A DNA stretch of 35,912 bases, from assembly GCA_964470025.1 (NCBI GenBank), contig CAYXZR010000006.1:1-35912 (forward strand), read 5' to 3'. This DNA is from an uncultured Gammaproteobacteria bacterium. GTDB taxonomy: Bacteria > Patescibacteriota > Patescibacteriia > Buchananbacterales > UBA6539. Made by a program: the position numbers and the translations under genes. Positions within the stretch are counted from its first letter, which is position 1, and the number at the start of each line of letters is the position of its first letter. Shown here one piece after another: positions 18,022-35,912 of this stretch. The notes under the pieces were generated by a model. The model was not told the origin of the DNA and did no database searches. It saw only the letters and a list, made by a program, of their open reading frames with translations.

Positions 18022-18384
18022 TTACTGCATTTTGATCTCTACGTCAACACCTGCTGGAAGATTTAGATTACTTAGCGTATCAATTGTCTTCGCTGTAGGG
18101 TTGAGGATGTCGAGCAATCGCTTATGAATGCGCATTTCGTATTGATCACGAGAGTCTTTGTGAACAAATGATGATCGCATCACAGTGTACTTTTTCTTTT
18201 CAGTTGGTAGTGGTACCGGCCCTGAAATAGTTGCACCTGTTCGCTTTGCTGACTCGATAATAGTGCGTGTTGATTGATCAATAATCTTATGATCATATGC
18301 ACGAATCTTGATTCTGATTTTTTGCATTCCGTCTTCAGCCTCTTTTGCTGGCTTTGATGATGCTGGTACTTTTTTGATTGCCAT
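18022..18384 (-). CDS. rpsJ: 30S ribosomal protein S10 (possible 19-aa N-terminal extension; alternative start ATG 18327)
   Basis: [18 protein letters not shown] core. Confidence 0.92.
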
Positions 18385-18410
18385 GGTCGTAAAGAACTTT
18401 ATTAGCAGTA

Positions 18411-18439
18411 ATCCCGCCCCGACGTGAGTCGGGGCGGAT
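18411..18439 (-). terminator. GC-rich hairpin between tuf and rpsJ (terminator or processing signal)
   Basis: Minus strand reads ATCCGCCCCGAC-TCAC-GTCGGGGCGGGAT. There is no clean T-run, so the function is uncertain. Confidence 0.35.
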
Positions 18440-18446
18440 CAAGCGT

Positions 18447-19637
18447 TTACTTAATAATTTTAGCTACCACACCAGCACCAATAGTTCGGCCACCTTCACG
18501 GATAGCGAAACGTTGCTTTTCTTCAAGTGCTGTTGGTTTCATTAGTTTAACCTTTAGATTTACAGTGTCTCCAGGCATAACCATTTCTGTTCCTTCTGGA
18601 AGTTCAACTTCACCAGTAACATCAGTAGTACCAATGTAGAATTGTGGCTTGTATCCCTTGAAGAATGGGTTATGTCGTCCACCTTCATCTTTGTTCAAGA
18701 TGTAGGTTTCTGCTTCAAATTCAGTGTGTGGAGTAATTGTTCCAGGAACTGCAAGTACTTGTCCTCGCTCGATTTCATCCTTCTTAGTACCTCGAAGCAA
18801 GATACCAGCGTTGTCACCAGCTTCACCTTGATCTAGTGACTTGTTAAACATCTCAATACCAGTAACCACAGTCTTTTTGGTATCCTGTAGACCAACGATT
18901 TCAACTTCATCGTTAACCTTTACGATACCTCGGTCAATTCGACCAGTTACTACTGTACCTCGACCTTCGATAGAGAAAATATCTTCGATAGGCATGAGGA
19001 ATGGCTTTTCAGTATCTCGAACTGGAGCTGGTACGTATTCGTCTAGTGCCTTTACCAAGTCTTCCATTGGTTTAGTAGCTTCTGCATCGTCTAGATTTTC
19101 TAGAGCCTTCAAAGCTGAACCTCGGATGATTGGGATTTCGTCACCAGGGAATTCGTATTTCTTCAATAGATCTCGAACTTCTTCTTCCACTAGGTCGATA
19201 AGTTCTGGTTCTTTTACTTGGTCTACCTTGTTTAGGAAAACAACCAATGCTGGCACACCAACCTGTCGAGCAAGTAGGATGTGTTCTCGGGTTTGAGGCA
19301 TTGGACCATCAGTAGCAGCTACTACTAGAATCGCACCGTCCATCTGAGCTGCACCAGTAATCATGTTTTTTACGTAGTCAGCGTGACCTGGACAGTCAAT
19401 GTGTGCGTAGTGTCGTGTTTCTGATTCGTACTCAACGTGAGTAGTCGCGATAGTAATACCACGTTCTTTTTCTTCTGGAGCGTTATCGATTTCGCTAACG
19501 TCTCGAGCCTGCTTTGCAAAACCCTTCTTGTGAAGGTACTGCAATAGAGCAGCTGTAAGGGTGGTTTTACCGTGGTCAACGTGACCAATGGTACCAACGT
19601 TTAAGTGAGGTTTTCCTCGTTCGAATTTGTCACTCAT
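18447..19637 (-). CDS. tuf: elongation factor Tu
   Basis: 396 aa with [14 protein letters not shown] and NKVD motifs. Confidence 0.98.
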
Positions 19638-19773
19638 AGTATAATTCTTATCTTAGTACTTTTTGAGCAATCTTTTGTAAACCAATCCCCGCTGACGGGC
19701 GAGAACAGATCCTCGTTACTAATAATTTATTTAAAGTGTTTTAATAAAACAATAAAAATTTTGCTTTATACAG

Positions 19774-19795
19774 CCGTAAAATACGTATTTTACGG
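19774..19795. repeat. perfect 22-nt palindrome ccgtaaaatacgtattttacgg in the tuf upstream region
   Basis: The two 11-nt halves are exact reverse complements. Confidence 0.9.
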
Positions 19796-19875
19796 ATTTA
19801 TCAACAAAATACTCCTAGAGTATATAACCAGACGACGAAAATGTCAAGGGTTTTTTGTGAATTTTCTGTGTATTT

Positions 19876-20238
19876 CTACTCGATTGGCTCGAAGTAGTAG
19901 GTACCCTCTTCCTCGTCTGTGTTTTGCTGATTTTCGTCCTGATTTTCAACTACTTTTGGATCAGCCATTTCTGCTGGTTCAAACTGCTTACTTTTGTTTA
20001 ACACCGCACCAACTGACTGCCAAGAATCATCAATATCTGCTAGGTTTTCAGTAGTTTCTGGCACTTCCTCTGCAACAGGTACTTCATGGTGTGGCTGTGC
20101 TACGGCTCCTTCTAATAACACCTCATATTGCTCAAGTGAGACAACAACAAAGCCTTCATGCTGCTCTTTATCAACGATAATACATGGAGAGTCAGTTTTC
20201 TTGGCTAATTTAATTGCTTTTTCAACAATATGAGACAT
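19876..20238 (-). CDS. hypothetical protein with a Phd/YefM-like N-terminal region and acidic disordered C-terminus
   Basis: 120-aa ORF inserted between fusA and tuf. The N-terminal ~45 aa (SPCIIVDKEQHEGFVVVSLEQYEVLLE) resembles the antitoxin-type fold pattern. No adjacent toxin ORF is present. Confidence 0.5.
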   Translation of the reverse strand: MSHIVEKAIKLAKKTDSPCIIVDKEQHEGFVVVSLEQYEVLLEGAVAQPHHEVPVAEEVPETTENLADIDDSWQSVGAVLNKSKQFEPAEMADPKVVENQDENQQNTDEEEGTYYFEPIE

Positions 20239-20255
20239 AGAATTTCGTATTAGTC

Positions 20256-22358
20256 TTAAGCTTTTGCTCGCTCACCTTTAACAACTTCTGCAACATTTGA
20301 TGGCACTTCTTGATAGTCAAGAAATTCCATAGCATATGATGCACGGCCTTGGGTCATTGATCGAAGCTCAGTTGCGTAGCCAAACATCTCGGCCAAAGGC
20401 ACCTTAGCGTCGATAACCTTCACTTGGTTTCGATCTCGCATTTCTTCGATCTGACCACGTTTTGATGAAAGGTTACCAATAACATCTCCCATGAATTCTT
20501 CAGGAGTAGTAACTTCCACGCTCATGATAGGCTCAAGAAGTACTGGGCCGGCTTTCTTCGCTGCATCAGCAAACGCCATAGAACCCGCTACCTTAAAAGC
20601 AACTTCAGAAGAGTCAACATCATGATATGAACCATCATATACTGTTGCTTTGAAATCGATAAGCTCAAATCCTGCAACAACACCTTTTTGTCGAGCCTCT
20701 TGAATACCTTTATTGATCGGTTGAATGTATTCTTTTGGAATTACACCACCTTTAACTTCATCTGCGAATTCATACCCTTTGCCAGCTTCGAGTGGTTCAA
20801 GTCGAATCCAACAGTGACCGTATTGACCACGACCACCAGATTGCTTAACAAACTTACCTTCTGCTTCAGCGGTTTTTCGAATAGTTTCACGATATGATAC
20901 TTGTGGCTTACCGATGTTTGCTTCCACCTTAAATTCTCGTTTCATACGATCAACGATAACTTCCAAGTGAAGCTCACCCATACCTGAGATCAGGGTCTGC
21001 ATAGTGTCTTCGTCAGTGTGTACTCGGAAAGTAGGATCTTCTTCTGATAACTTGCTCAATGCGATACCCATTTTTTCTTGGTCAGCCTTGGTCTTTGGTT
21101 CAATTGCTACAGAGATAACTGGTTCTGGGAAGCTAATACTTTCAAGCACGATTGGAGCGCCTTCAGTACAAAGTGTGTGACCAGTAAACGTTCCTTTCAA
21201 ACCAACTGCTGCTGCGATTTCTCCAGCATATACTTCATCTACTTCTTCTCGATCGTTGGCGTGCATTCGTAGAATTCGTCCGATACGTTCTTTTTCACCA
21301 GTCGATGAATTGTACACATATGAACCAGCCTTTAATGTACCTGAGTAGATTCGGAAGAAAACAATCTTACCAACGAATGGGTCAGTTGCAACCTTAAATG
21401 CAAGTGCTGCAAACTTTTCTTCATCTGCGTGTTCTCGCACGAGTTTCTTTTCTTCGTTTCGTGGGTCGAATCCTTCTACTGCTGGAATTTCTTTTGGTGA
21501 TGGGAGGAAGTCAACAACTGCATCAAGTAGTTGCTGTACACCCTTGTTTTTCAACGCTGAACCACACATTACTGGAATAATTTCGTTGTTGATAGTTGCG
21601 TGTCGAAGTACTCGCTTGATGTCTTCAAGTGCAATCTCTTCCCCACCAAGATACTTATTCATCAAGTCTTCATCGTGCTGTACTACTGCTTCGATAAGTT
21701 CTGCTCGGTATTTTGCAGCTTCTTCTTTCATGTCATCTGGAATATCTGTTACTTCAAACACTCTTCCCTCTTCATCCTTAAAGATCACTGCCTTTTCGGT
21801 AAGCAAGTCAATTACACCTTGGAAAGTGTCAGCTGCGCCGATTGGTAATTGAATTGGGTAAGCAGTTTTTGTAAGACGTTCATGAATTGATTTCATGTCA
21901 GCATAAAAATCTGCACCAGTTCGGTCCATCTTATTAATGAATGCCATCAGTGGCACTTTAAATTTTTCTGCTTGTCGAAACACTGTTTCTGACTGAGGTT
22001 CTACACCTGCAACACCGTCAAACACCAACACACCACCGTCAAGTACACGTAGTGAACGCTGTACTTCTACGGTAAAGTCGATGTGACCTGGGGTATCGAT
22101 GATGTTGATACGACACTTCTTGTCTTCTTCACCTCGTGGTGCCCAGAAACAAGTAGTCGCAGCTGAGGTAATTGTAATACCACGTTCTCGCTCTTGTTCC
22201 ATCCAGTCCATTTCAGCAGCACCTTCGTGCACTTCACCTACTTTGTGCTTTCGTCCAGTGTAGAACAAGATACGCTCGGTAACTGTTGTTTTACCCGCGT
22301 CGATATGAGCGATAATACCGATATTTCGAGTTTTTTCTAAAGAATATTCTCGAGCCAT
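20256..22358 (-). CDS. fusA: elongation factor G
   Basis: 700 aa with [14 protein letters not shown] and NKMD motifs. Confidence 0.98.
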
Positions 22359-26651: not shown

Positions 26652-26684
26652 AAAACAACCACGCAAATCGTGGTATTTTTATTT
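26652..26684. terminator. bidirectional terminator-like hairpin upstream of tRNA-Pro(GGG)
   Basis: ACCACG-CAAAT-CGTGGT is flanked by an A-run on one side and a T-run on the other. It reads as hairpin plus U-tract on both strands. Confidence 0.5.
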
Positions 26685-26832
26685 GAACTTCACTGCGGCC
26701 GCAAGATTTTGGCTTTGTTACAGCCGGCCATGTCGGACATGATCGCCGATAAATAAAGTATTACGTCTACTTATGGTAACCACATACGTATTTGACCTTA
26801 TGGGTCCGCAGAATACTTGCCGCAGCAAGATA

Positions 26833-26892
26833 TCATTTGTTCCCTACTCCAACGATTGTCCCAAAACTTAACAAACCATCAGTGAAGTTCAT
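26833..26892 (-). CDS. possible 19-aa leaderless small ORF (MNFTDGLLSFGTIVGVGNK, TGA stop)
   Basis: The ATG lies 4 nt after a predicted -10 box. There is no SD sequence. Coding status is unproven. Confidence 0.2.
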   Translation of the reverse strand: MNFTDGLLSFGTIVGVGNK

Positions 26893-26896: not shown

Positions 26897-26925
26897 AGTT
26901 TACCATTCATGGAAATGATGGTCAA
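26897..26925 (-). promoter_or_regulatory. sigma70-like promoter (TTGACC-17-TAAACT)
   Basis: It abuts the aroG terminator T-run, the same architecture as six other sites in the window. Confidence 0.4.
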
Positions 26926-26956
26926 AATAAAAATCCGACAAGAAAATCTTGTCGGA
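26926..26956 (-). terminator. intrinsic terminator after the DAHP synthase gene
   Basis: Minus strand reads TCCGACAAG-ATTTT-CTTGTCGGA followed by TTTTTATTTTG. Confidence 0.75.
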
Positions 26957-26975
26957 TGAAAGAGCAGATAGGATA

Positions 26976-28049
26976 CTACACCAGCATTTCGTATGCTTCT
27001 GCTAGCAAGCTAGCGGTTGCATCCCAATCCAAACATGGGTCAGTGATTGAAGTGCCATACCGCAGCTTGCGCAATGCGTCGGGTGCTGGAGAAAACTTTT
27101 GACTCCCTCCATTAATGTGACTTTCCAGCATGAGGCCCATGATAGTAGGATTGTTCGCACGGCGCTGACGAAGCACTGCTTTGAAAATTCCTGGTTGCGC
27201 AGTTGCGTCTTTACCAGAGTTTGCATGACTGCAGTCAACCATGATGCGGTCATTAACCCCAGCCTCCTGACACTTCATTGCCACTGCAGCTATTTCCTGC
27301 TCGCCGTAGTTTGAGCCACCCGAACCTCCGCGTAAGACGATGTGTCCAAAGCGATTGCCAGCGGTGGTTAGGGTTGAGACATGACCTGCGCCGTTAATAC
27401 CTAGAAAGCAGTGCTTACCAGCTGCAGCTAACATGCCGTGAATGGCAAGATCTACACTACCTCCCGTGCCGTTCTTGAATCCAAATGGCATGGAAAGCCC
27501 GCTTGCCATCTGTCGATGTGTTTGACTTTCAGCAGTGCGCGCTCCAAGGCATGCCCAGCTGATAACATCGGAAGTGTAGGCTGGGACGATCGGGTCCAAG
27601 AACTCGGTGCCGGTTGGCAAGCCCAGTTCATTGATGGCGATGAGGATTTTACGTGCCTGCTGAAACCCCTCTCGCACGTTAAACGAACCATTCAGCCAAG
27701 GATCGTTGATTAAGCCAGTCCAACCAAGTGTAGTACGCGGCTTCTCGAAGTAAGTTCGCATAAGGATTTCCATGCGATCTGCATAAGTCTGACGAAGCTC
27801 AACGAGACGCTCTGCGTAGTCGAGTGCAGCCTTTTCATCATGAATAGAGCATGGCCCCACAAGTACCAGTAACCGATTGTCTTCGCCGGTGATAATACGA
27901 CGAATTGCCTCTCGAGAAGCAGTGACAGTCTCTGCGGCTACATCAGTAATGGGAAGCATCTCAAGCACCCTATCAGGCGGGAGAAGCTCAGTGGTGCCAG
28001 TAATATTGAGATTATTAGTCCTTAAGTGTTCTGCAACTGCATTTGTCAT
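26976..28049 (-). CDS. aroG: 3-deoxy-7-phosphoheptulonate (DAHP) synthase, class I alpha (AroG/F/H type)
   Basis: 357 aa with GPCSIHD, KPRT, GARTAESQTHRQ and DCSHANS motifs, preceded by an AGGAGA SD. The isozyme specificity is not known. Confidence 0.92.
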   Translation of the reverse strand: MTNAVAEHLRTNNLNITGTTELLPPDRVLEMLPITDVAAETVTASREAIRRIITGEDNRLLVLVGPCSIHDEKAALDYAERLVELRQTYADRMEILMRTYFEKPRTTLGWTGLINDPWLNGSFNVREGFQQARKILIAINELGLPTGTEFLDPIVPAYTSDVISWACLGARTAESQTHRQMASGLSMPFGFKNGTGGSVDLAIHGMLAAAGKHCFLGINGAGHVSTLTTAGNRFGHIVLRGGSGGSNYGEQEIAAVAMKCQEAGVNDRIMVDCSHANSGKDATAQPGIFKAVLRQRRANNPTIMGLMLESHINGGSQKFSPAPDALRKLRYGTSITDPCLDWDATASLLAEAYEMLV

Positions 28050-28167
28050 AAGTGTATTCTCCTGACATTGGTGGAAGTGGCGGTACTATGTACTGCGGTT
28101 ACAATTTACTGCTTGTGATTCTTGTGATTGTTGTGCCCTGTAGTTCCTTTTTTAATGTAATGTGCGA

Positions 28168-28199
28168 TAAACAAAAAACTGACCTTTTTTAGACCAGTT
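28168..28199 (-). terminator. attenuator terminator in the DAHP synthase leader
   Basis: Minus strand reads AACTGGTCT-AAAAA-AGGTCAGTT followed by TTTTTTGTTTATC. Confidence 0.65.
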
Positions 28200-28232
28200 G
28201 CTTTGATACGTATTCACGACAAACTAACTGAT

Positions 28233-28286
28233 CTATAGGTCAGTAAAGAAAAAGCTAAAGAAATAGTTAGAATGTTGTGCTTTCAT
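28233..28286 (-). CDS. Phe/Tyr-rich leader peptide MKAQHSNYFFSFFFTDL
   Basis: 17 codons, checked codon by codon. There are 5 Phe in 6 consecutive positions, preceded by Tyr, with a TAG stop at 28235-28233. Confidence 0.7.
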   Translation of the reverse strand: MKAQHSNYFFSFFFTDL

Positions 28287-28296
28287 ATCTATTTTG

Positions 28297-28325
28297 AGCT
28301 TATACCTCAGAGTATGATTTGTCAA
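28297..28325 (-). promoter_or_regulatory. promoter (TTGACA, then -10 TATAAG/TAAGCT)
   Basis: It abuts the leuA terminator T-run and sits ~10 nt upstream of the leader ATG. Confidence 0.45.
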
Positions 28326-28330
28326 GAAAA

Positions 28331-28360
28331 TAAAAAAGGACCGCCAAAATGGTGGTCCTT
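28331..28360 (-). terminator. intrinsic terminator after leuA
   Basis: Minus strand reads AAGGACCACC-ATTTT-GGCGGTCCTT followed by TTTTTATTTTC. Confidence 0.7.
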
Positions 28361-28370
28361 AAAAGAACGA

Positions 28371-30068
28371 TTATCCCTGTGTTTTAAGGACTTTCTTGGA
28401 ACGACTGATGGCAGCGAGAATCGCCTTGATATTTACATTGCTTGAGTTAGTATCAAGCGCAGCACCCCAGACTTCGACATCGCCAAACGTAAGTTTAACA
28501 AACGATACAGCTGCAGCCTCTGAGCCTAAGCCAGTTGTTGAATCGACAAAATCGACCACCTTAAACCCATTAACTCCAAACTCAGCAAGACCATTCACAA
28601 ATGCATTGATTGGGCCATTACCAGTTCCGATGACTTGCTGCTCACTGCCTTCGACATTGATTTTAGCAAAGACAGTCACCTCGTCACCATCTTGGTTACT
28701 AGAGAACTTAACTAAGGTATGACTACCAGTTGGCTGCATAAATTCATCTTTAAACCATGCCATCACCTGCTCTGCTGTTGCTTCGCCTGCATTGTGATCA
28801 AGATATCCCTGAATCACCTGCCTGACAAATGGTTGAGCGGCTTTGGGAATACTAATGCCGTATTGCTCACGCAACACATGTGCAATGCCTCCCTTACCAC
28901 TCTGCGCATTGATACGGATGATTTTTTCAAACATCCTACCGACGTCCGCTGGGTTAATTATCAAATATGGCGCTTTCCAGCTACCATCTGGCTGGGTGGG
29001 ATTCACTAACCCCTTGCTGATTGCATCTTGGTGGGACCCTGAAAATGCAACATAGACAAGTTCTCCCACATATGGATGCCGAGGATCGATAGGCATGCCC
29101 GTAATTCTCACGACAGTTTCAACTATCTGAGAAAGATTACTAAAGTCGTACTCTAAGGGCAGTTCAATCCCCATTGCCATGCAGTTGAGAATCATAATAA
29201 CTAGGTCAACGTTTCCAGTTCGTTCACCGTGTCGAAAGAGTGTACCCTCGACTCGATCTGCGCCAGCAAGCACTGCATATGTTGCTGAAGCAGTTGCCAT
29301 GTCTTGATCGTTATGAGGATGCGCTGAAATTATCACACTCTCTCGATGAGTGAAACTGCGACAGAAGTATTCAAACTTGTCAGCAACTCGGTGAGGCCAC
29401 ATACGCTCAACAGTGGCCGGGAGATTAAATATCATGCGATTGTCAGGAGTTGCTTTGTTCCAGGCTGTAAACACAGCTTCACAAATCTCCAGAGCAAAAT
29501 CGATGTCAGTATCGGTAAATTCTTCTGGTGAGAACTCCAGATTAATCTGACTGCCAGACATCTGATCTGCAAGCATACTGATGAGCTCGACTGCATGAAC
29601 TGCTCGTGAGATTGTACTTTTTCTATCCAGCTGAAATACACCCTGCATATGCAGCTCTGAAGTGGCGATGTAGGCATGAACAATTGCCTGCTTTACGCCT
29701 ACAAGCGATTCAAAGGTTTTGCGGATCAAGTCTTCTCTGCACTGGGTGAGTACAGCGATGGTTACGTCATCAGGGATGTGGCCTTTTTCGATCAAGAGCC
29801 GAATAAACTCATAATCGTCCTGACTTGCCGAAGGAAAGCCAACCTCTATCTCCTTAAACCCAATACCGACAAGCATGTGAAAGTACTCAAGCTTCTGCTC
29901 AGGGCTCATGGGATTTTCGAGTGCTTGATTGCCATCTCGTAAGCACACGGAGGCAAATGTTACATGCGAAAACGCTTCGGCTTCGTTTCTGTCCGGCCAT
30001 GTTCGGTTGCTGAGCTTAACTGGCTGCGGGGGCCTGTACTGAGTGCGGGTAGCGACTGTAGATGTCAT
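28371..30068 (-). CDS. leuA: 2-isopropylmalate synthase, long (LeuA type 2) form
   Basis: 565 aa with LRDGNQA, HPHNDQDMATA and GERTGN motifs and a C-terminal regulatory domain. Confidence 0.88.
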   Translation of the reverse strand: MTSTVATRTQYRPPQPVKLSNRTWPDRNEAEAFSHVTFASVCLRDGNQALENPMSPEQKLEYFHMLVGIGFKEIEVGFPSASQDDYEFIRLLIEKGHIPDDVTIAVLTQCREDLIRKTFESLVGVKQAIVHAYIATSELHMQGVFQLDRKSTISRAVHAVELISMLADQMSGSQINLEFSPEEFTDTDIDFALEICEAVFTAWNKATPDNRMIFNLPATVERMWPHRVADKFEYFCRSFTHRESVIISAHPHNDQDMATASATYAVLAGADRVEGTLFRHGERTGNVDLVIMILNCMAMGIELPLEYDFSNLSQIVETVVRITGMPIDPRHPYVGELVYVAFSGSHQDAISKGLVNPTQPDGSWKAPYLIINPADVGRMFEKIIRINAQSGKGGIAHVLREQYGISIPKAAQPFVRQVIQGYLDHNAGEATAEQVMAWFKDEFMQPTGSHTLVKFSSNQDGDEVTVFAKINVEGSEQQVIGTGNGPINAFVNGLAEFGVNGFKVVDFVDSTTGLGSEAAAVSFVKLTFGDVEVWGAALDTNSSNVNIKAILAAISRSKKVLKTQG

Positions 30069-30103
30069 GATGGAACTTTTTCTCCTATTCCAAGATTGTA
30101 AAG

Positions 30104-30128
30104 ATCAAAAAACCTTCCGAGTGGAAGG
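30104..30128 (-). terminator. attenuator terminator in the leuA leader
   Basis: Minus strand reads CCTTCC-ACTC-GGAAGG followed by TTTTTTGATC. Confidence 0.65.
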
Positions 30129-30157
30129 CTGACTACTGAGTATATTTGCTACAAAAT

Positions 30158-30241
30158 TTACGCATCAATCAAACTTCCACCTTGAGGCTGGCTAAGAAGC
30201 AGGCTGAGCAGAAGTGAATTTTGTGCGTAAGAATAGTTCAT
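30158..30241 (-). CDS. Leu-rich leader peptide MNYSYAQNSLLLSLLLSQPQGGSLIDA
   Basis: 27 codons, verified, with 6 Leu in 7 positions and a TAA stop at 30160-30158. Confidence 0.7.
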   Translation of the reverse strand: MNYSYAQNSLLLSLLLSQPQGGSLIDA

Positions 30242-30254
30242 ATTGCTATTTATC

Positions 30255-30283
30255 AACCTATCTTAGATGGATTATTTTGTCAA
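30255..30283 (-). promoter_or_regulatory. promoter (TTGACA-17-TAGGTT)
   Basis: It abuts the upstream terminator T-run. Confidence 0.4.
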
Positions 30284-30314
30284 ATAAAAAAGCCTTGCTG
30301 GAACAACAAGGCTT
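30284..30314 (-). terminator. intrinsic terminator after the 100-aa ORF
   Basis: Minus strand reads AGCCTTGTTG-TTC-CAGCAAGGCT followed by TTTTTTATT. Confidence 0.7.
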
Positions 30315-30320
30315 GAAATG

Positions 30321-30623
30321 TTACTCATCCTCATCCTTGAGGATATACATAATCTCCGATGGAATCTCCGGCAAGTTGTCACCTAACAAGGTAACAATAT
30401 ATGGGATGCTTCTATCAAGTAATTCTTGGACCATGTGCCTTTGACGACTTCTTTTAGCAATAGGACCGGGCATTTGAACGCGTCTCAACAAAGTATCTGC
30501 TTCCCTAAGCTGCTGAAGAAGTCTTTTCTGAAGATACCCGGGGTCTTGCTCTCTCTGCCATACTGGTGCATTGCCCATAGTCTCTACCTGGACGACGACA
30601 CACGAATCGAACTGTCCTTCCAT
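30321..30623 (-). CDS. hypothetical 100-aa protein under a branched-chain-type attenuator
   Basis: GGAGAG SD plus its own promoter, leader, attenuator and terminator. I recognise no family. Confidence 0.6.
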   Translation of the reverse strand: MEGQFDSCVVVQVETMGNAPVWQREQDPGYLQKRLLQQLREADTLLRRVQMPGPIAKRSRQRHMVQELLDRSIPYIVTLLGDNLPEIPSEIMYILKDEDE

Positions 30624-30654
30624 GAGTAACTCTCCTTAAGATGAAATGAGCGGG

Positions 30655-30683
30655 CAAACAAAAACTAGTCTTTGTGAGACTAG
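30655..30683 (-). terminator. attenuator terminator in the leader of the 100-aa ORF
   Basis: Minus strand reads CTAGTCT-CACAA-AGACTAG followed by TTTTTGTTTG. Confidence 0.65.
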
Positions 30684-30728
30684 AATGTTTCGTTTGCTTT
30701 TTTGTGAAATTTATCGCATCAAAACACC

Positions 30729-30794
30729 CTAGTCGCTTTTGACTAGTACCACCTTAATGATTTGCTTAATCAGATTGTGTGGTTGTGTTTTCAT
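30729..30794 (-). CDS. Ile/Val/Leu/Lys-rich leader peptide MKTQPHNLIKQIIKVVLVKSD
   Basis: 21 codons, verified, with a TAG stop at 30731-30729. The last codons form a CTAGTC/GACTAG hairpin that can swap partners with the terminator arms. Confidence 0.6.
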   Translation of the reverse strand: MKTQPHNLIKQIIKVVLVKSD

Positions 30795-30805
30795 ACAATA
30801 TATTT

Positions 30806-30834
30806 AGCATATACCCGTTAAAAAGATGTGTCAA
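30806..30834 (-). promoter_or_regulatory. promoter (TTGACA-17-TATGCT)
   Basis: It abuts the cimA terminator T-run. Confidence 0.45.
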
Positions 30835-30861
30835 GAAAAAAGACCAAGTAACACTTGGTCT
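30835..30861 (-). terminator. intrinsic terminator after cimA
   Basis: Minus strand reads AGACCAAGT-GTT-ACTTGGTCT followed by TTTTTTC. Confidence 0.7.
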
Positions 30862-30867
30862 GGGTAT

Positions 30868-32409
30868 TTAAGGTGCGGTAGTTAGTCGACCGAGCAATAA
30901 TTTGTAATTAATCATCACTTCGGTAGCACGAATAGCAGCAATAACCTGATCGGTGTGAACTCCCCTTGTTTCAATCCGTACTGAATTGTCCCAGGTGATC
31001 GTTGCTTCAACAGGAGCATCAGTCTGGCCACCAGGTGGAATGTGCGCATCAAAGTCAGATAGTCGAGGGATGCTAAATGGTAATTCTAGCTGCGGCTCAA
31101 TATCTCGCAACGCATTCATGAAGGCATCATAGCCACCTGCCCCAGCAGCATGCGCTTCAAACTCTTTGTCACCTACGGCTATACGAATTGACGCAACAGG
31201 GCGGACTGACCTGTTGGTTGTGATAGTTGCGTGTGTCACCCTGAAAGCATCTTCTACTTCCAGCTTGAGAACTTTAGCAACTATGAATGGTAGATCCTCT
31301 CTGGTTACCGACTCTTTCATGTCACCGCGCCGGATAACTTCATTCAATACCAATGCTCGCTCTTCTGGACTCAGATCAAAACCAAGCTCGGCTACATTAA
31401 ACTCAATATTAGCTCTTCCAGACAGCTTACCTAGGGCATAGTGACGCGATCGACCGAAACGTTGTGGTGCAAGCACGCTGCCGTAGAGATCTCCTTTCTT
31501 GTCACCATCGGCATGTATGCCTGCTGTTTGCGTAAAAGCATTTTTTCCGAGAATTGGACAATTGGTTGCGACCTTTTGCCTACTTGCAGCTTGCACCAAC
31601 GCGCTGACAGCACTAAGCCGTGTTTCATCTACTGCGGTTTGGCGCTCAGTGTGATCACGAATAGCTGCGACCACTTCTGCCTGTGCTGCATTACCAGCGC
31701 GCTCTCCTAATCCATTTACCGTGACATGGACTCCAGCGACTCCACAACGCGCAGCGGCAATAGTGTTTGCAGTTGCAAAGCCGTAATCATTGTGCGCATG
31801 AAACTCAAATGTCAAACGATCATTATATCGCTCAAGTGTTTCTGAGAGAAACTGCTCGACCTGCCAAGGGTTTAATACCCCAAGCGTATCAGGCAACAAC
31901 ACTCGATCAACTTCCATAGTGCAGAGCGCATCAAGTAGTTGCCAAACGTACTCAGAATCATCCTTGATGCCGTTTGACCAATCCTCTAGATACACGTTAA
32001 CTGTTACCCCATGAGAACGTGCGTATGCAACAGTGTCAGTGATATCTTCTATGTGCTGCTCAAGTGACTTGCGCAACTGGCCACTGCAATGCTTACGAGA
32101 GCCTTTGCAAAGTAGATTCATCCGCTGACAGCCTGCGGCAATAAGCCAATTAACTGACAGCTCATGATCTACAAAACTCAGCACTTCAACTCGGTCTTGC
32201 ATTCCCACAGTAAGTGCCCAGTCCATAATGACTCTGACTGCTTGTTGCTCACCGTCGCTGACACGACAAGAAGCGACTTCGATTCGGTCTACTCCAACTT
32301 GTTGCAACAACATTTGTGCAATTGCCAATTTTTCTTCAGCGGCAAATGCAACTCCTTGTGTCTGTTCGCCATCGCGAAGGGTTGTGTCCATGATACTGAT
32401 TGTACTCAT
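30868..32409 (-). CDS. cimA: citramalate synthase / 2-isopropylmalate synthase family enzyme; the Ile-type leader favours CimA
   Basis: 513 aa with TLRDGEQ, HAHNDYGFATAN and GERAGNA motifs and a LeuA-type C-terminal domain. The substrate call rests on the Ile-rich leader and is an inference. Confidence 0.75.
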   Translation of the reverse strand: MSTISIMDTTLRDGEQTQGVAFAAEEKLAIAQMLLQQVGVDRIEVASCRVSDGEQQAVRVIMDWALTVGMQDRVEVLSFVDHELSVNWLIAAGCQRMNLLCKGSRKHCSGQLRKSLEQHIEDITDTVAYARSHGVTVNVYLEDWSNGIKDDSEYVWQLLDALCTMEVDRVLLPDTLGVLNPWQVEQFLSETLERYNDRLTFEFHAHNDYGFATANTIAAARCGVAGVHVTVNGLGERAGNAAQAEVVAAIRDHTERQTAVDETRLSAVSALVQAASRQKVATNCPILGKNAFTQTAGIHADGDKKGDLYGSVLAPQRFGRSRHYALGKLSGRANIEFNVAELGFDLSPEERALVLNEVIRRGDMKESVTREDLPFIVAKVLKLEVEDAFRVTHATITTNRSVRPVASIRIAVGDKEFEAHAAGAGGYDAFMNALRDIEPQLELPFSIPRLSDFDAHIPPGGQTDAPVEATITWDNSVRIETRGVHTDQVIAAIRATEVMINYKLLLGRLTTAP

Positions 32410-32584
32410 GTGCCTGCTCCTGTGGTAGTTTGTGAAAGATCAATTTGAAAAACAAGACAAACAAAAAATCCAGCTGGTGGCTGGACTCTCAAATCGTTTT
32501 GTTCAACGTTTACTAGAAAGCGGCCACCCGTGTAGGCTGGATAATAATGCTAATAATTGAAATGTTAGCGTATTGTGCTTTCAT
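32336..32584 (-). CDS. Ile-rich leader ORF MKAQYANISIISIIIQPTRVAG...; literal frame stays open for 82 codons
   Basis: ATG at 32584. There are 6 Ile in 8 positions. By manual translation the first in-frame stop is TGA at 32338-32336, inside cimA. A TAG-TAA pair (32514-32509) lies one frame off, at the position where a leader stop would be expected. This ORF is not in the supplied track, so it needs re-checking. Confidence 0.45.
32461..32484 (-). terminator. attenuator terminator in the cimA leader
   Basis: Minus strand reads TCCAGC-CACCA-GCTGGA followed by TTTTTTGTTGTC. Confidence 0.6.
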
Positions 32585-32590
32585 ATAATT

Positions 32591-32619
32591 ACTCTATCGC
32601 TTATCACCTATAGTGTCAA
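32591..32619 (-). promoter_or_regulatory. promoter (TTGACA-17-TAGAGT), 6 nt upstream of the leader ATG
   Basis: It abuts the tRNA-operon terminator T-run. The spacing predicts a leaderless or near-leaderless leader ORF. Confidence 0.45.
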
Positions 32620-32623
32620 ATAT

Positions 32624-32661
32624 AAAATAAAAAGCCCAATGAAGGTGGACCTACATTGGGC
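32624..32661 (-). terminator. intrinsic terminator closing the tRNA / structured-RNA unit
   Basis: Minus strand reads GCCCAATG-(12 nt)-CATTGGGC followed by TTTTTATTTT. Confidence 0.7.
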
Positions 32662-32701
32662 AAACTAAGAACAAAAGAACAAAACTACTAAAGAGCAAAT
32701 G

Positions 32702-32783
32702 TGGTCGGGCTAGAAGGAATCGAACCTTCGACCATGTGATGCTAGACTGCATCACACCGCTCTACCGACTGAGCTATAGCCCG
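32702..32783 (-). tRNA. atypical tRNA (82 nt with CCA) with Pro-like acceptor and an 8-9 bp anticodon stem
   Basis: The acceptor (CGGGCTA/TAGCCCG, A73), D arm (GCTC-AGTCGGTA-GAGC) and T arm (GAAGG-TTCGATT-CCTTC) are normal. The anticodon arm is TGTGATGC-AGTCTA-GCATCACA. Confidence 0.6.
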
Positions 32784-32886
32784 AGTGGAGAAAGAGCAGA
32801 TGTGGGGAATCATACTATCATCCACTCTTCCTCCGTGGGTTTGCCGGCGCAACTCTCTATGAAAGCCAGTGCCTGGCAAAAATTTC
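32784..32886 (-). ncRNA. structured spacer: 16-bp imperfect helix plus a small hairpin
   Basis: 32787-32802 pairs with 32819-32834. All three non-Watson-Crick positions are G-U on the minus strand and A-C on the plus strand. Confidence 0.45.
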
Positions 32887-32965
32887 AGGGGATGACAGGA
32901 GTCGAACCTGTGAGCTACTAAGCCACGTTGGCAAAGATACGCTCTAGCAATTAACTAACATCCCC
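32887..32965 (-). pseudogene. degenerate tRNA-Gly(GCC)-like element, no CCA
   Basis: The acceptor (GGGGATG/CATCCCC, U73), T arm (ACAGG-TTCGACT-CCTGT) and the loop heptamer TTGCCAA are all present, and that heptamer is identical to the one in the neighbouring tRNA-Gly. The anticodon and D stems do not pair, and the variable region is 11 nt. Confidence 0.5.
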
Positions 32966-33160
32966 TTTGTTGCGTCCACTACCTGTACAGCTGCCGTGCC
33001 CTGGTAGACGCAATGCTTGGGAACAAAAATTCGACGGGAGGTATGAATACCAGCAAAGAGCTGGTCCAAAAGATACGAGTGAAACTCGATCTCCAGTACA
33101 GACTGGTCCTCCCTTTGCGCTAGCATGAACGACTAAGAGTCGCTGGCATTGCGCAATAAA
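32966..33160 (-). ncRNA. structured spacer: multi-branched fold
   Basis: Helices 32970-79/33004-13, 33036-41/33108-13 (enclosing three 5-bp hairpins), 33115-20/33151-56 and 33129-34/33138-43. Confidence 0.45.
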
Positions 33161-33237
33161 TGGAGCTGCTGACGAGACTCGAACTCGCGACATCTTCCTT
33201 GGCAAGGAAGCGCTCTGACCAACTGAGCTACAGCAGC
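33161..33237 (-). tRNA. tRNA-Gly (anticodon GCC), CCA encoded
   Basis: Clean cloverleaf with loop UUGCCAA and U73. Confidence 0.9.
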
Positions 33238-33465
33238 TCTGAAATTTTTTGGGGAATGGAGTGTTCCAGGTCACCATCCCCCAAAGGTTGCAAACTTGTT
33301 ACTACTTGCAACCTGTTAGAAGCTGAGGTTGATTCCTCAAGAACTCTGTCTTTTGAGTCCGAGCAGCTACAAAGGCGCTCGCTTCCCTGCTCTACTCACG
33401 ATTACTGCTAGCCTGGCTGCGCGACTAACATCATGAGTAGCTTGCACCTGGCGCTGGTGCAAGAT
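33238..33465 (-). ncRNA. structured spacer: seven back-to-back hairpins
   Basis: Helices tile 33251-33462 almost without gaps. The coordinates are listed in the findings. Confidence 0.45.
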
Positions 33466-33542
33466 TGGCACACGTGGCCGGATTCGAACCGACGACAAGC
33501 GCATTGAGTTTTGCGCTGCTCTACCAACTGAGCTACACGTGC
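33466..33542 (-). tRNA. atypical tRNA with an 8-nt anticodon loop (AAACUCAA), G73, CCA encoded
   Basis: GCACGTG-TA-GCTC-AGTTGGTA-GAGC-A-GCGCA-AAACTCAA-TGCGC-TTGTC-GTCGG-TTCGAAT-CCGGC-CACGTGT-G-CCA. All other arms are canonical. Confidence 0.6.
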
Positions 33543-33551
33543 ACTAAAGCT

Positions 33552-33627
33552 TGGAGGACGTGATAGGATTCGAACCTACGACCAATGACTCCCAAAGTCA
33601 CTGCTCTGCCATCTGAGCTACACGTCC
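33552..33627 (-). tRNA. tRNA-Pro (anticodon UGG), CCA encoded, with non-bacterial-type G1:C72/U73 acceptor
   Basis: Cloverleaf with loop UUUGGGA. The acceptor and D arm are near-identical to those of the adjacent 8-nt-loop tRNA. Confidence 0.8.
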
Positions 33628-33914
33628 GGTGAAACTTTAGCGATTTTGAGCCCTCTCTCCGTGGACCGACCACATTTCCCTGCAGCGGAGAGAGGGCTGA
33701 CTGAGCAGGGGTACTGCCTGCAGGGAAATTTTGACTACATTGTCAAAGAAATTGATGGGTAGCGAGTCAGCTATTACGCACTGTTTCAGCTTTGGCTACT
33801 TCTAAGCCACAAGCACTCGCCACCCACCTCCTAGCCACACTATGATGGTATATCCCTTCACGGGGCCAGGAAATCTGTATATAAATATTTCAATTGCGTT
33901 TTTACGCAATTACT
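33628..33914 (-). ncRNA. ~285-nt structured 5' leader of the tRNA unit
   Basis: It contains an 11-bp helix closing a ~47-nt domain (33757-67/33815-25), interleaved perfect 13-bp and 11-bp helices (33649-33728) and a hairpin at 33892-33911. No credible ORF is present. Confidence 0.45.
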
Positions 33915-33943
33915 TTTATATATTATTTTTTACATCGTGTCAA
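33915..33943 (-). promoter_or_regulatory. promoter (TTGACA-17-TATAAA) driving the tRNA / structured-RNA unit
   Basis: Consensus -35 box, 17-nt spacer and near-consensus -10 box. Confidence 0.55.
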
Positions 33944-33950
33944 GTCATAT

Positions 33951-33978
33951 AAAAAAGTCACTGTCGTAACAGTGACTT
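33951..33978 (-). terminator. intrinsic terminator after the hydrolase gene
   Basis: Minus strand reads AAGTCACTG-TTACGA-CAGTGACTT followed by TTTTTTATATG. Confidence 0.75.
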
Positions 33979-33989
33979 AAGGTGCGAGG

Positions 33990-35549
33990 TTAGTAGGAAC
34001 TCCAATCTCCTACTGACGAGGTGTCCGGAGCTTCGAAGTTCGCGTACAGAATCCTGTCCTGCGAAATTGTGAATGAAATACTATTCGCAGTTTCTGATGT
34101 GCTCCAGCCATTAAATGTGGCGCCATCTTCTGGTACTGCGGTTAGCGTGACCATATCGCCGACGTTGTAGACTCCGCCGGGATTTTCTGGTGAAACAAGT
34201 ACATTGCCATTTCCACTTCCGAGAAGATTGACTCTGAGGACCCTTTCTGTCTCAGCAAGTTGAATTGTATGCATCTCACGCATACCATCATCAGATGTAA
34301 AGAAGAATGTCTGACGATAAGCATCGCCGGGGACTTCATATGGTGGGAAGATGTACTCGTCATCAAGCCGAGCCTCGAACCCAAGTTCGCTAGTAAAGCA
34401 GTCTGGGTTGACCGAGTTCACTGCACGATATCTGGAGTTGCGATCAGCTGGTCCGCCACCTAAGTAGTGATTACCACCGGGGACGGCAGTGAATTTCCAA
34501 TTGGCAATCTGCCAGCTGTCTGTATCGCCAGGTACTTGATAGTCATCAATGTCTTCTTGAGCGACTCCTGCGAAGCCAAACAACTTGTCACGGTAATCCC
34601 AGAAGTGCTGCGGGACAACGAGGCCATCGTTTAGTCCATGCATGACATAGACTCTGCTGACTTTATTGCCAAAGGTTGCCGCTAGTCCTGCGTGACGCTG
34701 TGGTGCACGCATTAACCGCTCCATGCTTTTTGTGGTTGTTAGGTCAGTGCTGTTGAGTGACCATGCGTTCACAATCCAGCCGGAGCCGTTGGCGTCACCA
34801 TCTGTACCGAGGGTGTAGCCGTTATTTTGCACGTCGTCTTGCGTCGAGATGAGCGTTAAGCCAGAGCCAGCATATACTTCGGCGAATGCCTTGGGTACTG
34901 CCTGAACAACTTGAAGTGCAAGGTGTGCTCCACCTGAGCCGCCAAGCATGTAAAGGCGTTGACGGTTGAGCGGCTTACCTTGATCTTCGAAATACTGAAG
35001 GGTTGCCTTCACCCCATTAATCACGTCGGCGACTTGAATATCGCCGTAATCATAGGGTGACATGTATCCCATGTTGCGGTAGAAGATTTTCACATAGACG
35101 ATGTCTTTTGTGTCCATCCACACTCGCAGCTCATTGAAGTTTGCATTTGCTGGATCATCAGCAAACACTCCTTGGTTGCTTGGACAGTCGGAAGTTCCGA
35201 TGCCGCCAAGCTCGACATACAAGCCCGTGCTTGCAGTGAGGGTTTCCATGCCGCCTTGAGGCAACACGACTACAGCTGAAATAGCAGCCGGGGTCTGTTG
35301 GCCGTCAGAGGAGCAGTTTGCAAATAGCCTTGAATCTGTGGCACCAGGATCACTGGGAACCTGCGACTCAAAAGTCAGATGCACTTTTGGATACACTGCC
35401 GGGGCAGACTTGCGTTGCACAATTGGGTTGATCTGTGGATCAAACTCAGGGACATAAAATATTTTTCCCTGAGCTTGAACGATGGCAGTCTGGAAAAGCC
35501 AGACAAGGGTTGCAAGGATTGTCATAATATAAAAGAGCGACTGCTTCAT
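33990..35549 (-). CDS. secreted alpha/beta-hydrolase (esterase/peptidase-like) with C-terminal divergent InlB B-repeat-like domain
   Basis: 519 aa with a signal peptide ending AQA-QG and a GxSxG nucleophile elbow (GGSGG). HGLNDGLVVP resembles the Asp/His region. The C-terminus LLGSGNGNVLVSP...VTLTAVPEDGATFNGWS matches the bacterial repeat pattern. Confidence 0.7.
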   Translation of the reverse strand: MKQSLFYIMTILATLVWLFQTAIVQAQGKIFYVPEFDPQINPIVQRKSAPAVYPKVHLTFESQVPSDPGATDSRLFANCSSDGQQTPAAISAVVVLPQGGMETLTASTGLYVELGGIGTSDCPSNQGVFADDPANANFNELRVWMDTKDIVYVKIFYRNMGYMSPYDYGDIQVADVINGVKATLQYFEDQGKPLNRQRLYMLGGSGGAHLALQVVQAVPKAFAEVYAGSGLTLISTQDDVQNNGYTLGTDGDANGSGWIVNAWSLNSTDLTTTKSMERLMRAPQRHAGLAATFGNKVSRVYVMHGLNDGLVVPQHFWDYRDKLFGFAGVAQEDIDDYQVPGDTDSWQIANWKFTAVPGGNHYLGGGPADRNSRYRAVNSVNPDCFTSELGFEARLDDEYIFPPYEVPGDAYRQTFFFTSDDGMREMHTIQLAETERVLRVNLLGSGNGNVLVSPENPGGVYNVGDMVTLTAVPEDGATFNGWSTSETANSISFTISQDRILYANFEAPDTSSVGDWSSY

Positions 35550-35589
35550 CGAAGTTCTCTCCTGTGTTGAGTTTTTTGAAGCTACCTAA

Positions 35590-35618
35590 CTTATACCATA
35601 AATAAAGCAAAAAATCAA
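35590..35618 (-). promoter_or_regulatory. extended -10 promoter (TTGATT-17-TGGTATAAG)
   Basis: It lies ~40 nt upstream of the hydrolase ATG, and an AGGAGAG SD follows. Confidence 0.45.
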
Positions 35619-35662
35619 TACCTGACTGCTATTTTATTAGTTTAATTAGGTTTTACGAGGTT

Positions 35663-35912
35663 TTATTGAGGATTTTTTGCCTGCTCAGGAGGTGCTGGCT
35701 TATTGTCTGGAGCTGGTACTTCCTGTGTTTCTTCAGGATACTCACAACTGTCATCATCTTGGGTAGCATCCGCGTTATAGTTAGTTGCCTCTTGGTCAGT
35801 ACAACCAAGGATTGGGTCTGGGGTTTCTTCAGGAGCAGGAGCAGGTGTTGGCGATTCTTCTTCAGGATACTCACAACTGTCATCATCTTGGGTAGCATCC
35901 GCGTTATAGTTA
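35663..35912 (-). CDS. 3' end of a secreted repeat protein (...GCTDQEATNYNADATQDDDSCEYPEE...), 5' end outside the window
   Basis: The frame is open from the window edge to TAA at 35665-35663. It holds two copies of NYNADATQDDDSCEYPEE 43 aa apart. Track ORF 35653..35898 is a different, low-complexity frame. Confidence 0.6.
   Translation of the reverse strand, partial: NYNADATQDDDSCEYPEEESPTPAPAPEETPDPILGCTDQEATNYNADATQDDDSCEYPEETQEVPAPDNKPAPPEQAKNPQ
35731..35783. repeat. 53-nt exact direct repeat, copy 1 (copy 2 at 35860-35912)
   Basis: Identical sequence cttcaggatactcacaactgtcatcatcttgggtagcatccgcgttatagtta, with a 129-nt period. Confidence 0.9.

Follow-up and report, generated by a model that had tools for sequence, protein, structure and literature searches.

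Four predicted leader-peptide transcription attenuators, each ahead of a single gene, in a conserved array of a Candidate Phyla Radiation bacterium

The DNA analysed here is a stretch of 35,912 nucleotides (hereafter the window) of the 47.9-kb contig CAYXZR010000006.1, assembly GCA_964470025.1. All of its genes lie on the minus strand. Read in that direction, positions 32660-26930 hold four monocistronic units, called Ile/cimA-like, Val-BCAA/orf100 (BCAA, branched-chain amino acid), Leu/leuA and Phe/aroG after the codons concentrated in a short leader open reading frame (ORF) and the gene behind it. The parts of each unit come in the same order: hairpin and T-run of the previous gene, TTGACA, -10 box, leader ORF, hairpin with U-tract, Shine-Dalgarno (SD) sequence, gene and terminator (Table 1). 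Gene identities were assigned with Pfam and NCBIfam. The units very probably represent four independent ribosome-mediated (leader-peptide) transcription attenuators in a Parcubacteria/Buchananbacteria-like bacterium from the Candidate Phyla Radiation (CPR). The predicted mechanism is classical ribosome-mediated transcription attenuation, and the leader families are apparently new.

In all four units the TTGACA box abuts the preceding T-run, with a weak -10 box of the TAnnnT type 17 nt further on; promoters and terminators are near the Escherichia coli consensus. The T-run with TTGACA recurs at 24628 and 33741, so it is a local promoter style and nothing peculiar to the four units. The leader ATG stands 6 (Ile), 11 (Val/BCAA), 13 (Leu) or 10 nt (Phe) past the -10 box without an SD, in contrast to the cargo genes behind the leaders, which have strong SDs of the AGGAG type. 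Twelve leaders from three related contigs, described below, likewise lack an SD and have gaps of 6-14 nt. Judged by the -10 spacing, the leader transcripts are predicted to be near-leaderless, with 5' untranslated regions (UTRs) of 0-8 nt. The sequence ATGAAAGCACAA occurs in two exact copies and one copy with one mismatch, and all three are leader starts. The codon runs are IISIII (Ile), IIKVVLV (Val/BCAA), LLLSLLL (Leu) and FFSFFF (Phe). A pattern scan returned 18 terminator-like sites, compared with 5.7 +/- 1.9 in shuffles, and recovered all four attenuator hairpins together with the hairpins 3' of cimA, orf100 and aroG; the leuA terminator, which has one mismatch, was spotted by eye. Short ORFs in which 5 or more of 7 residues are identical and which have a terminator nearby were also sought by a crude scan; it returned 19 matches from about 0.8 Mb of related DNA (both strands) and the window. 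It caught three of the four window leaders, each of which fits the end product of the enzyme behind it.

The part-by-part reading and the pattern scan bear out an original prediction, made by a model from the letters of this DNA, of four tandem single-gene units with promoter, leader, attenuator and terminator. Its joining of T-run and TTGACA holds for each unit (and elsewhere in the window), as do the paralogous start of three leaders and a leader beginning 6-13 nt past the -10 box without an SD. Two of its statements were true in part: the -10 boxes are present but weak, and the run of one amino-acid class that it described in every leader is found for Ile, Leu and Phe, whereas the fourth leader mixes Ile, Val, Leu and Lys and has no single-residue run. 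The fourth leader would sense a class of amino acids, the branched-chain ones, and not one amino acid, which is the only reading that the mixed run appears to fit.

In the proposed mechanism, transcription from a sigma-70-type promoter would begin on the leader AUG or a few bases ahead of it, and a ribosome would translate the leader while RNA polymerase makes the downstream segments. Where the cognate charged tRNA is scarce, the ribosome would stall on the last codons of the run and mask segment 1; the 2:3 antiterminator would then pair, the 3:4 terminator would be blocked and the gene would be transcribed. Where the amino acid is ample, the ribosome would reach the stop codon and mask segment 2, the 3:4 hairpin and U-tract would form, and transcription would be expected to end. 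The proposed specificities are Ile for the cimA-like gene, Ile/Val for orf100, Leu for leuA and Phe for the DAHP (3-deoxy-D-arabino-heptulosonate 7-phosphate) synthase gene. A cognate codon cluster, an intrinsic terminator, a mutually exclusive antiterminator and a suitable stalling geometry were all found, the geometry by simulated masking in the four window leaders and seven others.

By inspection, each leader RNA contains four segments, with segment 1 at or just past the run, segment 2 near the leader stop, and segments 3 and 4 forming the terminator. The four window leaders fold better than dinucleotide shuffles (z = -2.2 to -6.8), with values of -6.8 for the Val/BCAA and -3.6 for the Phe attenuator. 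In the Ile leader, segment 1, CCAGCC (32535-32540), pairs with segment 2, and the antiterminator joins GGUGGC (32523-32528) to GCCACC (32476-32481) in a 2:3 helix of just 6 bp. The Val/BCAA leader has a 1:2 hairpin, CUAGUC...GACUAG (30729-30746), and an antiterminator of 15 bp between GACUAGGGUGUUUUG and CGAAACAUUCUAGUC. The Leu antiterminator pairs GGUGGAAG, which lies within the leader ORF, with CUUCCACU, and the Phe segments are ACUGACC (1), GAUCAGUU (2), AACUGGUC (3) and GGUCAGUU (4), followed by a U-run. Untranslated Phe and Val RNAs fold into nested 1:4 and 2:3 helices; since this fold still ends at the U-tract, a lack of translation should also terminate, as in the classical model.

Stalling was simulated by barring pairing from the 5' end through 12 nt past each A-site codon under equilibrium folding; the energy of the best terminator-bearing fold was then subtracted from that of the best fold in which segment 4 stays free. 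In all four window leaders the antiterminator drew level with the terminator or surpassed it at the last 3-5 run codons and nowhere else. The sensitive A-site codons were I-S-I-I-I in the Ile leader (+0.1 to -0.7 kcal/mol, and up to +13 past the run), I-K-V-V in the Val/BCAA leader (-4 to -6, then about +7), S-L-L-L in the Leu leader (-2 to -4, then about +10 to +11) and S-F-F-F in the Phe leader (-3 to -9, then +2 to +6). Once the ribosome stood two or three codons beyond the run, the terminator was ahead by 2-6 kcal/mol in the Phe leader and by 6-13 kcal/mol in the other three. The switch point was the same in seven homologous leaders from other genomes, giving 11 leaders in all. The alternative pairings of the original prediction were thus recovered under simulated stalling, and its proposal of attenuation of the classical type is supported by anatomy, folding, conservation and covariation.

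Related loci were sought by a metagenome scan based on RpsL, which yielded 80 CPR loci. The closest relatives among them, L099 and L088, have FusA proteins 78% and 74% identical to that of the window, and a third contig, L163, was located through the LeuA homologue P0004. A single JGI metagenome is the source of L099 and L088, and an unrelated Logan run that of L163. All three keep the synteny HExxH protease-rpsL-rpsG-fusA with tRNA-Pro(GGG) farther upstream, and carry leader units upstream of tRNA-Pro in the order and with the promoter style seen in the window. Conservation of the leaders at orthologous loci, on which the original prediction had staked itself, was therefore found: the families, their order and their locus are shared by three other CPR contigs. 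A Pro-type (PVPP) leader is present in L099 and L163 and absent from the window, where none was seen upstream of the tRNA cluster (33630-33960) when looked for. When the 78 other CPR rpsL loci were searched with a covariance model of the Phe leaders, no further members turned up, and an Arg-rich short ORF in L085 was discarded as a false positive lying within a coding gene. The array seems to be confined to a small clade, or to be placed elsewhere in other genomes.

Within each family, local alignments between genomes gave z-scores of 5-33, except for 2.7 between the Val leaders of the window and L099; cross-family scores were mostly near zero. Searches with nhmmer gave E = 1e-4 to 5e-15 in the Leu family and 3e-3 to 1e-2 in the Phe family. 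The frame, the position of the stop relative to segment 2 and the gap of 6-14 nt from -10 box to ATG are kept in 16 of 16 leaders. For the Val, Leu and Phe families the RNAalifold consensus structures are the antiterminators, and each family shows 3-6 compensatory pairs. Pairing in the Leu antiterminator reaches 96.6%, where slid controls give 32-64%, and a U-A/C-G exchange in it sets two genomes against two; in the terminator stems (3-4 genomes) the figures are 92.6% and, for slid controls, 19-59%.

Several comparisons link the modules to one another. The Phe leader of the window shares its -10 region and first nine codons with the Ile leader (z = 7.8) and the same 5' parts with the Val leader (z = 6.4), the range for such 5' comparisons of the window Ile, Phe and Val leaders being z = 6-8 against shuffles. 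Across genomes, Ile and Leu leaders follow a common template, run-(S/G)-run-SQPxGG(S/R/K)(F/L), and the terminator of the L163 Ile leader, CCTTCCACT(C)GGAAGGTTTTTT, equals that of the window Leu leader (z = 10.4). A covariance model built from Phe leaders only matches the L163 and L099 Val leaders over the full length of the model (E = 0.008 and 0.03). These observations support a relationship of the Ile with the Leu module and of the Phe with the Val module, the main difference probably lying in the sensed codons. As the specificities are present in all or most of the four genomes, the re-targeting would predate their divergence. The idea that one module was duplicated and re-targeted by a change of codons, put forward in the original prediction, accordingly gains from the shared 5' parts, the shared terminator and the Phe model that finds Val leaders, but the re-targeting is older than this genome. 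Leaders of one genome resemble each other in their N-terminal codons (MKAQ/MKTQ in the window, MT... in L088) more than they resemble those of other genomes, which suggests gene conversion or a common constraint on the start region. Taken together, the four leaders appear to be lineage-specific families in an ordered, conserved array upstream of tRNA-Pro(GGG)/rpsL, with cargo exchanged in evolution.

A number of points weigh against attenuation by leader peptides. All four genomes are metagenomic contigs and the evidence comes from sequence; leaderless translation and the coupling of transcription to translation are assumed for CPR bacteria. The masking, which presumes equilibrium folding and a footprint covering the A-site codon and 12 nt more, offers a thermodynamic sketch, short of kinetic proof. 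Of the terminator hairpins, those of Phe (-5.4 kcal/mol) and Val (-6.7 kcal/mol) are weak, the edge of the Ile antiterminator is marginal (0 to -0.7 kcal/mol), and the window Val/BCAA leader, with 3 Val and 3 Ile codons mixed with Lys, carries an ambiguous signal. Terminator stems show one-sided changes only and no two-sided ones. With 3-4 sequences per family the conservation gives good qualitative support, and the covariation is suggestive but statistically not strong; for example, 25 of 500 shuffles match the observed pairing of the Leu antiterminator.

Table 1 Features of the four window units, and leaders with their cargo in the three related contigs.
Contig	Feature	Positions	Strand	Remarks
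Window	Ile unit, -35 TTGACA	32614-32619	minus	Right after the T-run of the tRNA-Cys terminator (32632-32652)
Window	Ile unit, -10 TAGAGT	32591-32596	minus
Window	Ile leader ORF	32513-32584	minus	MKAQYANISIISIIIQPTRVAAF, then stop; Ile run 32540-32563; predicted leaderless
Window	Ile attenuator	32455-32490	minus	Terminator hairpin 32464-32490, then U-run
Window	cimA-like synthase gene, 513 aa	30868-32409	minus	HMGL-like + HCS_D2 + LeuA_dimer; SD AGGAG; terminator 30841-30861
Window	Val/BCAA unit, -35 TTGACA	30829-30834	minus
Window	Val/BCAA unit, -10 TATGCT	30806-30811	minus
Window	Val/BCAA leader ORF	30729-30794	minus	MKTQPHNLIKQIIKVVLVKSD, then stop; sensitive codons I-K-V-V are codons 13-16
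Window	Val/BCAA attenuator	30655-30746	minus	Terminator 30665-30683, then U-run
Window	orf100, 100 aa, mostly helical	30321-30623	minus	SD AAGGAG; terminator 30290-30314
Window	Leu unit, -35 TTGACA	30278-30283	minus
Window	Leu unit, -10 TAGGTT	30255-30260	minus
Window	Leu leader ORF	30158-30241	minus	MNYSYAQNSLLLSLLLSQPQGGSLIDA, then stop
Window	Leu attenuator	30105-30130	minus	Terminator CCUUCC/GGAAGG, hairpin 30111-30130, then U-run
Window	leuA, long (yeast/actinobacterial-type) 2-isopropylmalate synthase, 565 aa	28371-30068	minus	Terminator about 28335-28357
Window	Phe unit, -35 TTGACA	28320-28325	minus
Window	Phe unit, -10 TAAGCT	28297-28302	minus
Window	Phe leader ORF	28233-28286	minus	MKAQHSNYFFSFFFTDL, then stop
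Window	Phe attenuator	28168-28245	minus	3:4 terminator 28177-28199, then U-run
Window	DAHP synthase gene, type I-alpha (AroF/G/H family), 357 aa	26976-28049	minus	Terminator 26933-26957
L088	Ile leader			MTSARNIIIIGIIISQPWGGSFRN; cargo: 138-aa protein of no assigned function
L088	Leu leader			MTKLSAKNLLLGRLLLAPSGGRFTCI; cargo: 53-aa Zn-ribbon peptide and orf100-like protein
L088	Phe leader			MTKTRTEKFFFSFFFTDLAG; cargo: Cys-rich 89-aa protein
L099	Val leader			MKTARQNLVLANVVVLVI; cargo: tRNA-Val, 209-aa ORF, orf108
L099	Leu leader			MKFSAKKALLLGLLLLLQPQGGKFTSV; cargo: LeuA2-type isopropylmalate synthase
L099	Pro-type leader			MYIHTNSILPVPPSLL; cargo: marginal tRNA-like match (28 bits)
L099	Aromatic leader			MQNLIRNNWYFGFYFFTGR; cargo: tRNA, pheA, type I-beta DAHP synthase
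L163	Ile leader			MTFTKNIIISIIIISQSTGGSLSTV; cargo: a different HMGL-family synthase (29% identity with window CimA)
L163	Val leader			MKSIAIRNIVVVNVVVLVS; cargo: 214-aa and 69-aa ORFs
L163	Leu leader			MNHFAKQSELLLLGLLLLQPTGGRFTYR; cargo: Zn-ribbon peptide and long LeuA, 53% identical to window LeuA
L163	Pro-type leader			MKYQIILSLPVPPSLP; cargo: tRNAs
L163	Phe leader			MQKTHANNWFFSFSFYTDR; cargo: 244-aa ORF and PDH/PDT fusion

Each of the three window enzymes is the first committed step toward the amino acid sensed, on this reading, by its own leader. For the cimA-like synthase the top NCBIfam match is the CimA of Leptospira, under its cut-off; because an Ile leader precedes the gene, the enzyme is read as a putative citramalate synthase, a name that the leader supports. 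Among 5.8 billion proteins LeuA has no relative closer than 53-55% identity, and in GTDB species genomes the nearest to CimA reaches 58%. Eighty cimA loci from GTDB were dropped as comparators, being at most 58% identical and almost never preceded by an Ile-rich upstream ORF. A viral origin of the DAHP synthase was rejected, as no relative was found in IMG/VR.

The fourth gene, orf100, had no match in Pfam, NCBIfam or PHROGs, and no record in the contig index; among 5.8 billion proteins and 1.84 billion representatives its sole match was the query itself. A single-sequence AlphaFold model was poor (pLDDT 49), and a profile of three sequences of the family returned only noise against the PDB. 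Weak homologues were nevertheless found in the related contigs: orf108 of L099 (32% identity over 65 residues, pairwise E = 3e-7), the 69-aa ORF of L163 and the N-terminus of a 225-aa ORF of L088. Given these homologues and its strong SD, orf100 was taken as a genuine gene and not a spurious ORF. In L099 and L163 the family sits 3' of the Val leader, beside a family of 209/214-aa proteins. It would be a lineage-specific helical protein, with predicted expression tied to the supply of Ile/Val.

The cargo of the related contigs includes further elements. Leader attenuators lie directly upstream of tRNA genes at L099 44-461, 3756-4079 and 4320-4646 and at L163 8089-8450. The L099 Val leader precedes a tRNA-Val(UAC) with a 13-nt insert, and the L099 aromatic leader precedes a tRNA with an 83-nt insert that ARAGORN reads as Ile(UAU). 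Leader-peptide attenuation of tRNA genes was not found in a literature search. In L088 (1694-1855) and L163 (6016-6210), but not in the window, the Leu attenuator and the main cargo are separated by a gene for a small, membrane-anchored CxxC...CxxC (zinc-ribbon-like) peptide, 53-64 aa long. Long near-perfect inverted repeats stand between attenuator and next gene, in the 5' UTR of the cargo, at L088 650-830 and L099 181-300.

Three other explanations of the array were weighed. The short ORFs could be incidental or untranslated, with the hairpins acting as leaky terminators or 5'-UTR structures, or a protein, a metabolite or, in T-box-like fashion, a tRNA could operate the switch. The leaders do lack an SD, attenuation has here been argued from sequence data, and regulation of ilvB in Streptomyces coelicolor was reportedly unchanged when the candidate codons upstream of it were mutated (PMC1262725). 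However, the runs fit the enzyme behind them in three of the four units and are kept across 3-4 genomes while flanking codons drift, the 16 leaders share their geometry, the switch point follows the run codons in all 11 leaders tested, and no T-box or riboswitch model matched. Incidental ORFs are in our view quite unlikely, and leader-peptide attenuation remains the preferred reading.

The contig could also be an assembly chimera or carry a foreign island, with units from outside the CPR misjoined at a tRNA gene to a CPR ribosomal region. The ribosomal part is, by two markers, CPR. Its SecY shares 73-76% identity with the SecY proteins of Candidatus Buchananbacteria and other Parcubacteria/Patescibacteria, and no ORF lies between putative S5 (9091-9729) and L15 (8578-9081) genes, assigned by position and size only, which leaves no room for L30. 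CPR bacteria are known for small genomes, and the reduced genome claimed in the original prediction is consistent with such a host. At about 27 kb the GC content climbs from about 0.40 to 0.46-0.52. Third-position GC (GC3) is 0.39-0.50 in the leader-controlled cargo genes and 0.19-0.41 in the backbone; when 26976-35898 was compared with 1-26600, the step fell at tRNA-Pro(GGG), with GC3 of 0.39-0.56 for the leader-controlled genes plus a 519-aa esterase-like gene. This step, the tRNA genes that flank the block, and best LeuA and CimA relatives that do not exceed 55-58% identity and are labelled Planctomycetota, Verrucomicrobiota or Sumerlaeota would all suit a misjoin. Against it, the same junction (leader units, tRNA-Pro(GGG), HExxH protease, rpsL-rpsG-fusA) occurs in three independent contigs, and L099 repeats the GC step at its tRNA-Pro gene (1-7000 compared with 7000-20405). 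The leader and promoter DNA is as AT-rich as the backbone (GC 0.34-0.38), the T-run with TTGACA matches the site at 24628 in the ribosomal part, and the long LeuA of L163 stands behind the same Leu leader as that of the window. A chimera is very unlikely and was rejected on the synteny in three other contigs, the block being a genuine feature of the CPR clade. The composition suggests foreign cargo behind native regulatory DNA, and a horizontal origin of the cargo genes is likely.

That the leader ORFs encode small hydrophobic peptides with a function of their own (membrane peptides or toxins, for instance), the runs reflecting that function, is hardly credible: the peptides are hydrophobic and partly conserved (FFSFFFTDL and SQPxGG, for example), and one leader peptide, peTrpL, has a trans-acting role on record (PMC7298713), but the conserved C-terminal motifs (QPQGG, TDL) are RNA segments 1 and 2 and change along with their pairing partners, and paralogous leaders hold the scaffold while swapping the run residue (Ile or Leu), which fits a codon sensor and not a peptide of fixed fold. 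A secondary peptide role may be compatible with attenuation, so the two are not exclusive.

Other elements were seen near the array. A structured RNA of about 206 nt (26685-26890, minus strand) has a promoter at 26897-26925 and a terminator at 26658-26674; its 5' end, GAACUUCAC, pairs with its 3' end, GUGAAGUUC, and the predicted start is exactly the first base. It is kept between the Phe unit and tRNA-Pro(GGG) at L088 3214-3425, L099 6792-7002 and L163 about 12970-13180, with compensatory changes in 15 pairs, and had no Rfam match. It may be a divergent housekeeping RNA, possibly 6S-like, or a new noncoding RNA. Within a tRNA cluster (32702-33627), ARAGORN gives the tRNA at 33466-33542 (minus strand) a four-base anticodon (actc) and no assigned identity, and Rfam scores it as a tRNA with 52.7 bits; this could reflect an 8-nt anticodon loop or a decoding oddity. 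Between the terminator of the 519-aa gene and tRNA-Pro(UGG), about 300 nt at 33640-33960 (minus strand) are unannotated; GC-rich stretches and two promoter-like TTGACA sites occur there, and neither a leader ORF nor an Rfam match was seen.

Rfam leader, T-box and riboswitch families gave no match in 26900-32720 at E <= 10, nor in the whole window at gathering scores, so the units, despite their like function, are not members of the Rfam leader families. The enterobacterial attenuators of pheA (pheL), leu (leuL), ilvGMEDA (ilvL), ilvBN (ivbL), thr, his and trp have in common with them a cognate codon run, four segments, a terminator before the gene and read-through driven by stalling. The FFSFFF run is reminiscent of that in E. 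coli pheL, and the mixed I/V/L leader of the multivalent ilv leaders. Unlike the enterobacterial systems, for which the classical model (PMC1183508) and pheL groups (PMC3082878) have been described, the window leaders have no SD and begin 6-13 nt from the -10 box, each attenuator would govern one gene and not a pathway operon, the targets are a DAHP synthase and a citramalate-synthase-like enzyme, and the host is a CPR bacterium. No paper joining a leader peptide with citramalate synthase regulation was found in the literature search.

Leaderless leader ORFs are on record in actinobacteria. In Streptomyces lividans they include leuL, trpL and ilvL, several of them before monocistronic trpE, leuA, leuS and trpS (PMC8079986), and the polycysteine short ORFs of mycobacteria are also leaderless (bioRxiv 10.1101/834739). 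Like the window leaders, some of these have a hairpin and U-stretch behind them (PMC8079986; bioRxiv 10.1101/834739). The actinobacterial cases often lack a clear intrinsic terminator or are non-classical (PMC1262725), whereas canonical terminator/antiterminator pairs were found in all four window units; no homology was detected between the two sets of leaders, and the window start sites are predicted only. T-box and CodY/leader control in Firmicutes performs the same task, in that amino-acid supply or tRNA charging sets terminator read-through. A T-box binds tRNA directly, whereas in the window a translating ribosome is the proposed sensor and no T-box matched. Firmicutes also have leader peptides, namely the his leaders of bacilli (PMC2965389) and a Leu-rich attenuator peptide in Staphylococcus aureus (PMC5794164), so that such systems have been reported from Proteobacteria, Actinobacteria and Firmicutes (PMC2965389, PMC1262725, PMC5794164). 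A GC-rich Planctomycetota contig (L161, 1250-1410) has a Leu-rich upstream ORF with a GTG start, VNATAFRTAGLRLSDLLLAGSAGRTLSG, and a hairpin with U-tract before a long-type leuA; control of the long LeuA type by Leu leaders may be widespread outside the classical phyla.

A literature search on CPR/Patescibacteria with leader peptides or attenuation found nothing relevant. The cassette had originally been thought undescribed, which holds for the lineage and the array but not for the mechanism, given the Streptomyces leaderless leaders before single first-enzyme genes (PMC8079986). What is new are the leader families, which have no Rfam match, the host lineage, the single-gene DAHP synthase and citramalate-synthase-like targets, and the conserved array with exchanged cargo.

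The cargo seen behind the leaders comprises non-orthologous first-step enzymes, lineage-specific proteins (the orf100 and 209/214-aa families behind the Val leader, and all L088 cargo) and tRNA genes. Tentatively, and with less confidence than we place in attenuation itself, the Ile-Val-Leu-(Pro)-Phe array can be read as a conserved sensor rack at a recombination-prone site, at which genes would be swapped behind fixed sensors; host-dependent CPR cells might thereby monitor external amino acids through ribosome stalling and drive responses beyond biosynthesis. CPR/Patescibacteria are thought to be amino-acid auxotrophs, and little is known of their gene regulation. Conserved amino-acid-specific ribosome sensors would mean that CPR bacteria monitor tRNA charging by a classical device, and the orphan orf100 family gains a link to branched-chain amino-acid supply. 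The comparison of four genomes offers a clean natural case in which leader modules hold on to their RNA scaffold but exchange the codon that is sensed or the gene that is regulated, of relevance to the evolution of attenuators and to the design of synthetic amino-acid sensors. If the sensor-rack reading is true, the array would be a natural example of modular, re-targetable attenuators.

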